Below, piece by piece: positions 4,040-10,206 of a stretch of DNA of 64,000 nucleotides. A model generated the notes under the pieces. That model saw only the letters and a program-made list of their open reading frames with translations, was not told the DNA's origin and did no database searches. Where the stretch lies: the NCBI RefSeq assembly GCF_003019035.1, contig NZ_CP027447.1; one strand, given 5' to 3'. A program made the position numbers and the translations under genes. Origin of the DNA: Escherichia coli. Lineage in GTDB: Bacteria; Pseudomonadota; Gammaproteobacteria; Enterobacterales; Enterobacteriaceae. Position 1 is the stretch's first letter. Every line of letters starts with the position of its first letter.

Positions 4040-4693
4040 CTTAAGAAGTCCGTCGGTCAGGGGGAGCATGAACTCTCCATCCTCACCGGAGTTGAGCTGG
4101 TTGTCAAACGTGGCGAGACCATCGCACTGGTGGGCGAGTCGGGATCGGGTAAGTCAACCTTGCTGGCGATCCTCGCCGGGCTGGATGACGGCAGCAGTGG
4201 CGAAGTGAGTCTGGTGGGACAACCGCTACATAATATGGACGAAGAAGCGCGGGCAAAGTTGCGCGCGAAGCACGTAGGCTTTGTTTTTCAGTCATTTATG
4301 TTAATTCCTACCCTTAACGCGCTGGAAAACGTCGAGCTTCCGGCGCTGCTGCGTGGTGAGAGTAGCGCAGAAAGTCGTAACGGGGCAAAAGCGTTGCTCG
4401 AACAGTTAGGACTGGGTAAACGTCTGGATCATCTTCCGGCACAGCTTTCCGGCGGCGAACAGCAACGAGTGGCGCTGGCGCGAGCTTTTAATGGTCGGCC
4501 TGATGTGCTGTTTGCCGACGAACCCACCGGCAATCTTGACCGCCAGACGGGCGATAAAATTGCCGACCTGCTGTTTTCCCTCAACCGTGAACATGGCACC
4601 ACGTTGATTATGGTGACCCACGACCTGCAACTGGCGGCACGCTGCGACCGCTGCTTACGGCTGGTGAACGGGCAGTTGCAGGAGGAAGCATGA
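4007..4693 (+). CDS. ybbA: ABC transporter ATP-binding protein YbbA
   Basis: 228-aa ORF with Walker A GESGSGKST and LSGGEQQR signature; stop overlaps ybbP start. Confidence 0.9.
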   Translation: MPAENIVEVHHLKKSVGQGEHELSILTGVELVVKRGETIALVGESGSGKSTLLAILAGLDDGSSGEVSLVGQPLHNMDEEARAKLRAKHVGFVFQSFMLIPTLNALENVELPALLRGESSAESRNGAKALLEQLGLGKRLDHLPAQLSGGEQQRVALARAFNGRPDVLFADEPTGNLDRQTGDKIADLLFSLNREHGTTLIMVTHDLQLAARCDRCLRLVNGQLQEEA

Positions 4694-7104
4694 TTGCACG
4701 TTGGTTCTGGCGCGAATGGCGCTCGCCGTCGCTATTAATTGTCTGGCTGGCGCTAAGCCTGGCGGTGGCCTGCGTGCTGGCGCTGGGCAATATCAGCGAT
4801 CGCATGGAGAAGGGCTTAAGCCAGCAAAGCCGGGAGTTTATGGCGGGCGATCGGGCGTTGCGCAGTTCGCGCGAAGTGCCGCAAGCGTGGCTGGAGGAAG
4901 CGCAAAAGCGCGGCCTGAAAGTCGGCAAGCAGCTGACTTTCGCCACCATGACATTTGCAGGCGACACACCGCAGCTGGCGAACGTCAAAGCGGTGGATGA
5001 TATCTACCCGATGTATGGCGATCTGCAAACCAATCCCCCAGGCCTGAAACCGCAGGCGGGCAGCGTATTGCTGGCCCCACGCCTGATGGCACTGCTTAAC
5101 CTGAAAACGGGCGACACCATTGACGTGGGCGATGCCACCTTGCGGATTGCCGGAGAAGTGATTCAGGAACCGGATTCCGGTTTTAACCCCTTCCAGATGG
5201 CTCCGCGTCTGATGATGAATCTGGCGGATGTCGATAAAACCGGAGCCGTGCAGCCGGGGAGTCGGGTCACCTGGCGTTATAAATTCGGCGGCAACGAGAA
5301 CCAGCTCGACGGCTATGAGAAATGGTTGTTACCCCAGCTTAAACCCGAACAACGCTGGTACGGTCTGGAACAGGACGAAGGCGCGCTGGGGCGATCGATG
5401 GAACGCTCGCAGCAGTTCCTGCTGCTTTCGGCGCTTCTGACCTTGCTGCTGGCAGTGGCAGCGGTGGCGGTGGCGATGAATCATTACTGTCGCAGTCGCT
5501 ACGATCTGGTGGCGATCCTCAAAACGCTGGGGGCAGGGCGAGCGCAACTGCGTAAGCTAATCGTCGGTCAGTGGTTGATGGTGCTGACGCTTTCAGCCGT
5601 TACCGGTGGGGCGATAGGCCTGTTGTTCGAAAACGTGTTGATGGTGCTGCTCAAGCCCGTTCTGCCTGCTGCACTACCGCCAGCCAGCCTCTGGCCGTGG
5701 CTATGGGCGCTGGGCACCATGACGGTTATCTCGCTGCTGGTGGGGCTACGACCATACCGCTTGTTGCTGGCAACGCAGCCTTTACGCGTATTACGTAATG
5801 ATGTGGTAGCGAACGTCTGGCCGCTGAAGTTTTATCTGCCGATTGTCAGTGTAGTGGTTGTGCTGCTGCTCGCCGGATTAATGGGTGGCAGCATGCTGCT
5901 TTGGGCGGTGCTGACGGGCGCGGTAGTACTGGCTTTGCTGTGCGGTGTGCTGGGCTGGATGCTGCTGAATGTACTTCGCCGCATGACGCTGAAATCGCTA
6001 CCTCTGCGCCTGGCGGTTAGCCGCCTGTTACGTCAGCCGTGCTCAACGTTAAGCCAGCTTTCGGCATTTTCGCTCTCCTTTATGCTGCTGGCACTGCTGC
6101 TGGTGTTGCGTGGCGATCTGCTCGACCGCTGGCAGCAGCAGCTACCGCCAGAAAGCCCGAACTACTTTTTAATTAACATCGCCACAGAACAGGTAGCACC
6201 GCTAAAAGCGTTCCTCGCGGAACATCAGATAGTCCCGGAATCGTTTTATCCGGTGGTGCGGGCGAGACTGACGGCGATTAACGGCAAGCCGACAGAAGGC
6301 AATGAAGATGAGGCGCTCAATCGCGAACTCAATCTTACCTGGCAAAATACGCGGCCCGATCATAATCCGATTGTCGCCGGTAACTGGCCGCCAAAAGCCG
6401 ATGAAGTGTCGATGGAAGAGGGGCTGGCGAAACGCTTAAACGTTGCCCTCGGTGATACCGTGACTTTTATGGGCGATACCCAGGAGTTCCGCGCTAAAGT
6501 GACCAGCCTGCGCAAAGTGGACTGGGAAAGTCTGCGGCCTAATTTCTATTTTATTTTCCCTGAAGGGGCATTAGACGGGCAACCGCAGAGCTGGCTTACC
6601 AGTTTCCGCTGGGAGAATGGCAACGGCATGTTGACGCAACTCAACCGCCAGTTCCCTACCATTAGCCTGTTAGACATTGGCGCGATTTTAAAACAGGTCG
6701 GTCAGGTGCTGGAGCAGGTAAGTCGGGCGCTGGAGGTGATGGTGGTGCTGGTCACCGCCTGCGGTATGTTGCTGTTGCTGGCACAGGTGCAGGTGGGAAT
6801 GCGTCAGCGTCATCAGGAGCTGGTGGTGTGGCGCACACTCGGTGCGGGGAAAAAGCTGCTGCGCACGACATTGTGGTGTGAGTTCGCCATGCTCGGGTTT
6901 GTTTCTGGCCTGGTGGCCGCAATTGGTGCGGAAACGGCGCTGGCAGTGTTGCAGGCGAAAGTGTTTGATTTTCCGTGGGAGCCAGACTGGCGATTGTGGA
7001 TTGTGCTGCCGTGCAGCGGTGCACTGCTGCTGTCGCTTTTCGGCGGCTGGCTGGGTGCGCGACTGGTTAAGGGTAAGGCGCTGTTCAGGCAGTTTGCGGG
7101 ATGA
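4690..7104 (+). CDS. ybbP: FtsX-like ABC transporter permease YbbP
   Basis: 804-aa polytopic membrane ORF, translationally coupled to ybbA. Confidence 0.9.
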   Translation: MIARWFWREWRSPSLLIVWLALSLAVACVLALGNISDRMEKGLSQQSREFMAGDRALRSSREVPQAWLEEAQKRGLKVGKQLTFATMTFAGDTPQLANVKAVDDIYPMYGDLQTNPPGLKPQAGSVLLAPRLMALLNLKTGDTIDVGDATLRIAGEVIQEPDSGFNPFQMAPRLMMNLADVDKTGAVQPGSRVTWRYKFGGNENQLDGYEKWLLPQLKPEQRWYGLEQDEGALGRSMERSQQFLLLSALLTLLLAVAAVAVAMNHYCRSRYDLVAILKTLGAGRAQLRKLIVGQWLMVLTLSAVTGGAIGLLFENVLMVLLKPVLPAALPPASLWPWLWALGTMTVISLLVGLRPYRLLLATQPLRVLRNDVVANVWPLKFYLPIVSVVVVLLLAGLMGGSMLLWAVLTGAVVLALLCGVLGWMLLNVLRRMTLKSLPLRLAVSRLLRQPCSTLSQLSAFSLSFMLLALLLVLRGDLLDRWQQQLPPESPNYFLINIATEQVAPLKAFLAEHQIVPESFYPVVRARLTAINGKPTEGNEDEALNRELNLTWQNTRPDHNPIVAGNWPPKADEVSMEEGLAKRLNVALGDTVTFMGDTQEFRAKVTSLRKVDWESLRPNFYFIFPEGALDGQPQSWLTSFRWENGNGMLTQLNRQFPTISLLDIGAILKQVGQVLEQVSRALEVMVVLVTACGMLLLLAQVQVGMRQRHQELVVWRTLGAGKKLLRTTLWCEFAMLGFVSGLVAAIGAETALAVLQAKVFDFPWEPDWRLWIVLPCSGALLLSLFGGWLGARLVKGKALFRQFAG

Positions 7105-7120
7105 TGACAGGCGTTAGATT

Positions 7121-8369
<1,249 letters not shown>

Positions 8370-8465
8370 CATGCCTGCAATCTGGGAAACCGGGGTAGAA
8401 AAAAACTTGCAGGCCATAACAGTATCTACGAGGATCGTGCAATATATTTATTTTGCAAGATTGTG

Positions 8466-8499: not shown

Positions 8500-8532
8500 T
8501 GAACAGTGTGCATTTTGGCAATAAATATGAAA

Positions 8533-8585
8533 CCAACTGTCATGTCGGTTTTTTTAAAGGCCGAAGGTGGTAAACCTTCGGCCTT
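8533..8585. terminator. Tandem hairpins: an imperfect terminator hairpin with T-tract (8533-8555) followed by a perfect 11-bp stem (8557-8585); likely 3' end of the small-peptide transcript
   Basis: ccaactgtcatgtcgg+ttttttt, then aaggccgaagg/ccttcggcctt; first hairpin is a near-copy of the terminator at 9011-9033. Confidence 0.45.
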
Positions 8586-8601
8586 AGCTACGTTTCCTCA
8601 G

Positions 8602-8685
8602 TTATTCAATAAACTGACGGATCAGTTCCAGCAGCGCGATTAGCGCCTTAAGAACGATGAGAACTTTATCGAGAAAAGTTTTCAT
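8602..8685 (-). CDS. Candidate type I toxin: 27-aa hydrophobic/amphipathic peptide MKTFLDKVLIVLKALIALLELIRQFIE (TisB/ZorO-like)
   Basis: Below the ORF-track size cut-off; read by hand on the reverse strand; SD AAGGGAG 6 nt upstream of ATG; single predicted helix with spaced K/E/R residues. Confidence 0.55.
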   Translation of the reverse strand: MKTFLDKVLIVLKALIALLELIRQFIE

Positions 8686-8910
8686 CCGTTGCTCCCTTAA
8701 GGGAGAAAGACAATCACAGCTTACCCTTACGTTGCCTGTAACTATGATTTTCTTCATGTGCTAGATGAGGACTGCCTCTCTCCAAATTAGAGCACCAGAA
8801 TCAGCACCACCTGTATCCTGACCAGGACTTAAAAGTACTTTTCCGCACTGCGGTAATCCCTTGAGGCAGTATCACTACTAGCGTCGGGATTGTATCGCCA
8901 ACATAGCTGT

Positions 8911-8939
8911 TTGAATATGTAGGCATCCTGACTTATAAT
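8911..8939 (+). promoter_or_regulatory. Near-consensus sigma70 promoter (TTGAAT-17 bp-TATAAT) for the candidate antitoxin sRNA
   Basis: -35 at 8911-8916, -10 at 8934-8939, predicted start near 8946. Confidence 0.5.
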
Positions 8940-8945
8940 TCACTT

Positions 8946-9033
8946 GCTAGATGAGGACTGTTTCATTTCTGCCCGGAACCACCAAGTCTTGGGCGGAAAA
9001 AATAAAAAAACCGACTGTCATGTCGGTTTTTTT
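8946..9033 (+). ncRNA. Candidate type I antitoxin sRNA (about 88 nt), divergent from the peptide gene
   Basis: Runs from promoter to intrinsic terminator without a credible ORF; its 5' 14-16 nt (ctagatgaggactg) repeat 8759-8774, so are complementary to the peptide mRNA 74-89 nt upstream of its ATG. Confidence 0.5.
9011..9033. terminator. Bidirectional intrinsic terminator (sRNA on + strand, mnmH on - strand)
   Basis: ccgac-tgtcat-gtcgg hairpin flanked by an A-run upstream and T-run downstream. Confidence 0.6.
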
Positions 9034-9096
9034 ATATCTGTATTCTGGTGCAACCATTTTGTTCTCACGACAATCGCCGTTTCAGAATACCGCCTA

Positions 9097-10206
<1,110 letters not shown>

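Follow-up and report, generated by a model that had tools for sequence, protein, structure and literature searches.

The interval between the convergent genes ybbP (4690-7104, + strand) and mnmH (9097-10191, − strand) appears to hold a type I toxin-antitoxin cassette of the DinQ/AgrB family that contains two near-identical 27-nt repeats. One of them (copy B) is the predicted terminator of the antitoxin sRNA, and the other (copy A) is, in the reading that we favour with moderate confidence, a young duplicate relic that could act at most as an auxiliary terminator. The gene order in the 64-kb window, i.e., the whole stretch of DNA that was analysed, is ybbP, an IS621 insertion, a REP element, the cassette interval, and mnmH. 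The interval is 100% identical to that of E. coli strain SCU-301. The repeated element, AAACCRACTGTCATGTCGGTTTTTTTA, occurs exactly twice in the window, at 8530-8556 (copy A) and at 9008-9034 (copy B), both on the + strand and 478 nt apart start-to-start, with 451 nt in between. The copies are identical at 26 of 27 positions, the sole difference being A8535 versus G9013. No occurrence of the element was seen in 100 dinucleotide-preserving shuffles, and none would be expected by chance. Extending the repeat to 40 nt (83% identity) adds 13 A/T-rich nucleotides of which only 7 match, and this extension was not counted. The original prediction of two near-identical direct repeats was right as to their existence and near-identity, while copy B, placed there at 9006-9032, in fact lies 2 nt further on.

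The assignment of the interval to the DinQ/AgrB family (dinQ-like, type I) is based on matches to models of both partners, on the RefSeq annotation, and on an antisense repeat with its predicted duplex. The toxin ORF (8602-8685, − strand) encodes a 27-amino-acid peptide, MKTFLDKVLIVLKALIALLELIRQFIE, which is annotated in RefSeq as dinQ (WP_349808740.1). The peptide scored 40.9 bits against the NCBIfam model NF041472 (toxin_DinQ, cutoff 30) and 24.5 bits against the DqlB model, below the cutoff of 35. On the opposite strand, the AgrB-family antitoxin sRNA (8947-9035, + strand) gave a full-length match to Rfam RF02891 with 53.6 bits (gathering score 40) and a fold z-score of −6.0. Its sigma-70-like promoter (8911-8939, + strand) consists of TTGAAT, a 17-nt spacer, and TATAAT, with 10 of the 12 consensus positions. 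A 22-nt direct repeat (8753-8774 / 8939-8960) allows the 5′ end of the sRNA to pair with the toxin 5′ UTR, in which the antitoxin target spans 8753-8783 (− strand). The pairing is perfect over 14 nt from sRNA +1 and extends to about 23 bp with G.U wobbles, giving a predicted duplex of −37.2 kcal/mol. The Rfam AgrB and NCBIfam DinQ matches bear out the earlier suggestion, made from the sequence alone, that the small peptide and the sRNA form a toxin-antitoxin pair. A first guess from the peptide, Zor/Orz, was discarded, as the Rfam OrzO-P match, at 25 bits, stayed below the gathering score of 60 and lay on the wrong strand.

Two further elements could be placed on the toxin side of the cassette. 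The palindrome CTCCCTTAAGGGAG (8689-8708, − strand) includes the Shine-Dalgarno sequence GGGAG, which precedes the ATG by 6 nt, and by analogy with dinQ (PMC5066626) it may form a stem that sequesters the Shine-Dalgarno sequence. A probable −10 box of the toxin promoter, TACAAT (8889-8894, − strand), was recognized by its alignment with the −10 region of the dinQ and dql promoters. No LexA operator of the form CTG-N10-CAG was found at the toxin promoter (8700-9000).

The cassette is like dinQ-agrB of K-12 in its 27-amino-acid single-transmembrane toxin, in the divergent AgrB-family sRNA with a 5′ end that is antisense to the toxin 5′ UTR, and in the homologous toxin terminator, sRNA terminator stem, Shine-Dalgarno-containing hairpin, and 5′ UTR blocks. 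The window peptide and K-12 DinQ also have the core ALIALLELIR in common. When the window cassette was aligned with K-12 dinQ-agrA (L010) and two plasmid dql loci (L011 and L012), homology ran from the hairpin at 8557-8585 through copy B and about 20 nt beyond, with TGCCTGT, GCACCACC, and CCAGG as invariant blocks of the toxin 5′ UTR. Together with the palindrome at 8689-8708, these blocks may take part in a four-element switch between a closed and an open Shine-Dalgarno sequence. Nevertheless, the window cassette differs from the K-12 locus in several respects: it lies at another chromosomal site (ybbP-mnmH), it has one sRNA instead of two and lacks agrA, and nucleotide identity between the loci is only about 70%. 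The antisense match of 30/31 in K-12 compares with the 14 perfectly paired nucleotides and the wobble-containing helix described above. At the place where K-12 dinQ carries the LexA operator CTGGATAATCATACAG, the window cassette has none, so the RefSeq label "dinQ", which implies damage-inducible, is attached here to a cassette that lacks a LexA operator. Moreover, K-12 dinQ-agrB has no extra sRNA terminator downstream of the toxin terminator, where the window cassette has copy A.

The divergent toxin/sRNA arrangement of dinQ-agrB in K-12 (PMC3567139; PMC5066626) is thus that of the ybbP-mnmH cassette. Kristiansen et al. 2016 (PMC5066626) defined the wider dql (dinQ-like) family, for which 14 sequences are published and which was reported to be widespread and to have sigma-70 promoters and Rho-independent terminators, and its genes dqlA and dqlB are located on chromosomes and plasmids of Enterobacteriaceae; dqlB is also mentioned in papers on pOXA-48. 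The dql genes belong to the same family and have the same architecture as the window cassette, and some strains carry both dinQ and dql, as the window's genome type does. With respect to the two toxin models, the window peptide falls on the DinQ side, being above that cutoff and below the DqlB one. Among the plasmid loci with a RefSeq DqlB, L011 lies beside an IncI1-type tra gene and L014 is on an IncFII plasmid; copy A is missing from all four plasmid dql loci inspected (L011, L012, L014, and L015).

Copy B is predicted to be the Rho-independent terminator of the AgrB-like sRNA, since the Rfam model covers it and the stem AAAAAACCGAC/GTCGGTTTTTT is common to agrA and agrB of K-12. It forms the core of a palindrome (9002-9035) with 14 perfectly matched pairs, bordered by A7 and T7, with a folding energy of −10.5 kcal/mol for the core and of −16.5 and −15.9 kcal/mol for the full stem on the two strands. 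The terminator scan passed on both strands with 14 pairs, in agreement with the earlier description of copy B as a clean bidirectional terminator. The − strand faces the convergent mnmH, and because the palindrome is perfect and has both flanks, copy B could also terminate the mnmH transcript. Rho-independent bidirectional terminators are known to occur between convergent genes. Copy B is of this kind in its palindromic stem, its A-tract and U-tract, and its position between the sRNA and mnmH, whereas copy A is unlike them, with its imperfect stem, low stability, and lack of an upstream A-tract on the + strand.

Both strands of copy A form only a weak hairpin. The + strand has an A.C mismatch and a folding energy of −4.5 kcal/mol, followed by U7, which confirms the weakened stem noted for this copy at the outset. 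On the − strand, the mismatch is replaced by a G.U wobble, and the hairpin (−7.8 kcal/mol, 8 pairs) is followed by the tail UUUCAUAUUUAUU; only this strand passed the terminator scan. Copy A directly adjoins, at 8556/8557, another hairpin (8557-8585, − strand), which appears from the alignment with K-12 dinQ and about 20 relatives to be the toxin mRNA's own terminator, the positional homologue of SL9, the dinQ terminator hairpin (PMC5066626). As originally described, the stem of this hairpin is perfect, but it comprises 12 bp (8557-8568 / 8574-8585) rather than 11 bp. The hairpin has a stability of about −20 kcal/mol, and its tail UUUAAAAAAA, with a U-tract of only UUU, failed the terminator scan.

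The failure of this tail, when set against the passing − strand of copy A, raises the question of whether copy A has been selected as an insulator. On the + strand, it would stop ybbP read-through running antisense to the toxin gene, on the − strand it would back up the toxin terminator, and jointly with copy B it would close the module off from its convergent neighbours on both sides. Insulation of the module from ybbP and mnmH transcription had been named at the outset as an alternative. Such a role would suit the U7 that follows copy A on the + strand, the empty sites examined, where the convergent genes are separated by REP elements or by nothing and never by such a hairpin, and three relatives (L049, L042, and L052) in which an unrelated second hairpin occupies the same position. 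However, both copy A hairpins are weak, most relatives have no second hairpin, and the K-12 dinQ terminator ends in the same short tail, UUUAA, without a second hairpin. In one lineage, the T-run has already been cut to T6. The A/G difference between the copies is no evidence of selection either, as it is a transition, and any transition yields a wobble on one strand by default. We therefore regard a selected insulator as unlikely, and copy A, as judged from the predicted folds, as an auxiliary terminator at best.

The distribution of copy A among relatives of the cassette marks it as a recent, lineage-specific duplicate of the antitoxin terminator. Its stem-loop has no counterpart in the K-12 dinQ-agrA locus or in L011 and L012. 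A scan of species-representative genomes with the family pattern returned 54 loci, of which about half are estimated to be chance matches in unrelated phyla. The toxin-side flanks of 22 sequences from Escherichia, Serratia, Photorhabdus, Citrobacter, Cedecea, Pantoea, Erwinia, Salmonella, and plasmids were aligned, and the family homology always stopped at a T-rich-TTAAAGG motif beside the toxin terminator. In this set, copy A was found only in Escherichia sp. E1V33, which has the same ybbP-mnmH cassette, and it was missing from about 20 family relatives at other loci or in other genera. Cassette positions 1-35 gave no blastn match in any relative. The 6-nt loop TGTCAT is common to both copies and was seen in none of the relatives examined, in which the loops of the sRNA terminator differ (GCAAA in K-12, CTCACCA in L014). 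The absence of copy A from the relatives and the loop unique to the two copies are the grounds for considering copy A a duplicate; that a duplication involving the terminator took place, as had been proposed, is supported by the shared loop.

A donor was also sought on plasmids in a distant search mode, which returned nothing above about 72% identity except three E. coli records of several megabases, which look like chromosomes deposited as plasmids. In the scan of species-representative genomes, the closest true relatives were those of Serratia oryzae (76%) and Photorhabdus khanii (74%), and both lack copy A. In sum, the cassette belongs to a known family and is already annotated as dinQ in RefSeq, and the duplicated terminator is a small, ordinary, lineage-specific structural variant of it. 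The overall significance is modest.

In convergent type I systems such as par (Fst/RNAII) and txpA-RatA, a shared bidirectional terminator gives rise to RNA complementarity and a contact site. A comparable second RNA-RNA contact can be imagined here, as read-through of the first hairpin would leave the toxin mRNA with a 3′ hairpin that is complementary to the antitoxin terminator, including the loops AUGACA/UGUCAU. The predicted duplex between the − strand of copy A and the + strand of copy B amounts to −41.7 kcal/mol over 27 bp, and the short U-tract of the first toxin hairpin would permit the read-through. If true, a divergent type I system would have gained a 3′-end loop-loop contact on its read-through toxin transcripts, as convergent systems have. 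The likeness to par lies in the sequence complementarity of the 3′ hairpins, but the conservation of that complementarity is not seen among carriers of the cassette: the copy B loop variants AGTCAT (PapRG-06-5) and TATCAT (strain 504239) are not compensated by a matching change in copy A. Furthermore, the contact would require read-through of a hairpin of −20 kcal/mol, neither loop contains a YUNR motif (by eye), and about 20 relatives, including the characterised dinQ-agrB, function without such an element. We consider this contact very unlikely.

As for the origin of the duplicate, copy A could have arisen by unequal recombination or tandem duplication via the T-runs that border the cassette core on either side. 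In the closest relatives, the T-run GTTTTTATTAAAGG lies beside the toxin terminator and resembles the T-run 3′ of the sRNA terminator. Recombination between such runs would set the sRNA terminator directly against the toxin terminator, the arrangement found at 8556/8557, and most of the extra unit would later have been lost, leaving copy A. In the dinQ family, cassettes and sRNA copies frequently occur in tandem. The Salmonella IncFII plasmid locus L014 has two dqlB cassettes with 3 + 2 AgrB-like sRNAs, and in Citrobacter amalonaticus (L059) an sRNA terminator precedes the following toxin terminator by about 60 nt. At the ybbP-mnmH locus, no duplication intermediate, i.e., a tandem cassette or three copies of the element, was found in any genome. 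Copy A might also be what is left of a second, degraded sRNA gene, namely its 3′ end; no similarity to the sRNA body was detected left of copy A, where the cassette segment ends 17 nt away, and this possibility was folded into the proposed tandem duplication.

Type I modules of E. coli often sit in or generate tandem repeats, as illustrated by LDR/ldr-rdl, QUAD/sib-ibs, and the zor-orz tandems. The dinQ-family loci L014 and L059 are alike in this respect, whereas in the ybbP-mnmH cassette only the 27-nt terminator is repeated and not the whole module. Repeat-organised type I toxin-antitoxin loci are the subject of Fozo et al. 2010, as cited in PMC8594479.

To place the repeats in the population, the ybbP-mnmH site was surveyed in 5,426 complete E. 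coli genomes. The cassette was present in about 1,330 of them, with two copies of the 27-mer and never more, and the anatomy given here is made explicit for a chromosomal dinQ-like cassette carried by about a quarter of complete E. coli genomes. In roughly 580 genomes (an estimate, about 1,914 minus 1,330), ybbP and mnmH are adjacent without the cassette and zero copies are found, and two genomes, AR_0077 and LR-28, carry a single chimeric copy and neither toxin nor sRNA. The remaining genomes, which on our reading of K-12-type genomes have larger insertions such as rhs, have zero copies. Counted as such, the 27-mer occurred in 1,330-1,332 genomes, at most twice per genome, and was found neither beyond these genomes nor on plasmids. 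At least 80% of the 570-bp cassette segment was recovered in 1,314 of the 5,426 genomes, and in 1,313 with an identity of at least 99%, a variation too low to test selection on copy A.

Two genomes (L070 and L072) in which BLAST had detected one copy turned out to have both, with point variants. The two copies thus drift independently, and these independent variants argue against concerted evolution or gene conversion between them, which we had also considered. No genome with one copy and a retained peptide gene, a case named beforehand as speaking against the repeats as cassette boundaries, was found, the check having covered these two genomes, with roughly ten others listed by BLAST as one-place.

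The limits of the cassette were defined from empty sites. In the four cassette-less genomes read (L005-L008), GTGCA is joined directly to CAGAAT, so the present/absent segment is the 570 bp from 8513 to 9082, and both repeat copies lie inside it. There is no target-site duplication and not a single terminator copy at these four empty sites. Neither repeat marks an acquisition boundary; the true ends of the indel are 17 nt and 48 nt outside the repeats.

The sharp indel ends could be taken to suggest that the hairpins are the subterminal ends of a small non-autonomous mobile element (IS200/IS605-type or MITE), which would explain the scar-free presence and absence as well as the direct orientation of the hairpins at 17 and 48 nt from the ends. 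This is almost certainly not the case. The cassette and the 27-mer are confined to one chromosomal locus, with no more than two hairpins in a genome and none on plasmids; the left hairpin is missing from relatives of the cassette, and the hairpin itself belongs to a conserved sRNA as its terminator.

According to the original prediction, the cassette may instead have been acquired by recombination at a terminator that already existed between ybbP and mnmH, with duplication of that terminator, and a comparison of cassette-less genomes was proposed in which a single copy might be seen. Genomes with a single copy and no peptide gene do exist, but there are only two (AR_0077 and LR-28), against zero copies at about 580 empty sites. 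Both copies lie within the indel, the terminator stem matches agrA and agrB, and the single copies are chimeras with an A-type left and a B-type right flank, formed with two different junctions. Acquisition at a pre-existing terminator is accordingly contradicted by these observations, and we consider it extremely improbable.

Both AR_0077 and LR-28 retain one 27-mer, with the flank of copy A on its left and that of copy B on its right. The right-hand flank, TATATCTGTATTCTGGTG, has its homologue in what lies downstream of the agr sRNAs of relatives, which means that the single-copy state is derived from the cassette and is not ancestral to it. These genomes thus appear, from their flanks, to be deletion products rather than ancestors. 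The diagnostic position within the remaining copy is G in AR_0077 and A in LR-28, the two outcomes expected from recombination between diverged repeats, and the difference between the junctions points to recurrent precise deletion. For the G junction of AR_0077 to form, the crossover must have fallen in the repeat's first 5 nt, unless a mismatch was corrected. AR_0077 and LR-28 are each other's closest haplotypes at the ybbP-mnmH locus; that one deletion took place and the diagnostic site then changed by a point mutation is nevertheless unlikely, at roughly 0.3% by our estimate. The flanks of AR_0077 were also compared with those of carriers to date the deletion, and as all were 97-98% identical, the comparison was uninformative.

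The only demonstrated effect of copy A is therefore recombinational, in that the cassette is occasionally deleted between the 27-bp direct repeats. The junctions point to a recurrent and precise loss of 478 bp that would remove toxin and antitoxin together. The duplicated terminator thereby makes the cassette precisely deletable, and two natural products with alternative junctions are available. A 108-bp toxin-null allele of the cassette is common as well, and together with the deletions it provides a small natural example of the decay of a chromosomal type I module.

The DinQ/AgrB-family cassette (8513-9082) was at least 99% identical across 1,313 genomes, while the ybbP and mnmH sequences on either side of it diverged by 2-3% in the same genomes. 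Because the cassette is so uniform and its flanks are more divergent, the comparison of sequences suggests either recent spread via recombination or strong constraint.

A common allele of the cassette lacks 108 bp (8663-8770) flanked by two imperfect 10-nt repeats, GATGAGAACT and GATGAGGACT. With this segment the allele loses the start codon and SD sequence of the toxin as well as the antitoxin target, while the sRNA gene is retained. It was seen in the comparison genomes L003 and L009 and in many further genomes, and its frequency was estimated at approximately 10-35% of the carriers, a figure drawn from biased samples. Some of the genomes with the deletion are still annotated by RefSeq with a 25-aa 'dinQ'. 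The toxin ORF (8602-8757, minus strand) is called inconsistently by RefSeq in general, as a product of 27 aa (WP_349808740.1), of 51 aa (WP_001308457.1) or, in the deletion alleles, of 25 aa. A search for the LexA box motif CTG-N10-CAG near the toxin, between 8700 and 9000, gave no hit; the label 'damage-inducible' is transferred to the toxin by homology, despite the absent LexA box.

On the antitoxin side, the sRNA of strain 504239 has one extra base in its antisense-pairing region, at the position corresponding to approximately 8954 (GATGAAGGAC), which could be a genuine variant or a sequencing error. The same strain additionally has a variant in the loop of copy B, the terminator repeat of the sRNA.

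Immediately 3' of ybbP, a complete IS621 (7148-8425) with an IS110-family transposase ORF (7340-8320) is inserted in a REP element. Both junctions show a CT dinucleotide (GGCCT|...|CTACG), and comparison of the carrier loci revealed that the insertion is not present in other carriers of the cassette. IS621 is a recombinase guided by a bridge RNA. An Rfam search with its non-coding left end (7148-7339) returned no match.

Relatives of the cassette, dqlB, were also found on plasmids. In the Salmonella Saintpaul IncFII plasmid NZ_CP022492.1 (L014, 1200-2860), two dqlB cassettes adjoin ccdAB in tandem, one of them with three tandem AgrB-like sRNA genes and the other with two. The dqlB cassette on the plasmid of strain 2013C-3277 (L011) adjoins an IncI1-type trbA. 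There, a 17-nt inverted repeat with 88% identity (1509-1525 and 2058-2074) places a copy of one toxin-terminator arm just 3' of the sRNA terminator, and therefore a different terminator-derived repeat flanks this cassette. Alignments to the dinQ/dql cassettes were also obtained in four MAG contigs (L024, L029, L036, and L050) labeled as Lachnospiraceae or 'uncultured bacterium', which may represent mis-binned DNA of enterobacterial or plasmid origin; the alignment statistics for L024 were identical to those for the K-12 dinQ-agr locus.
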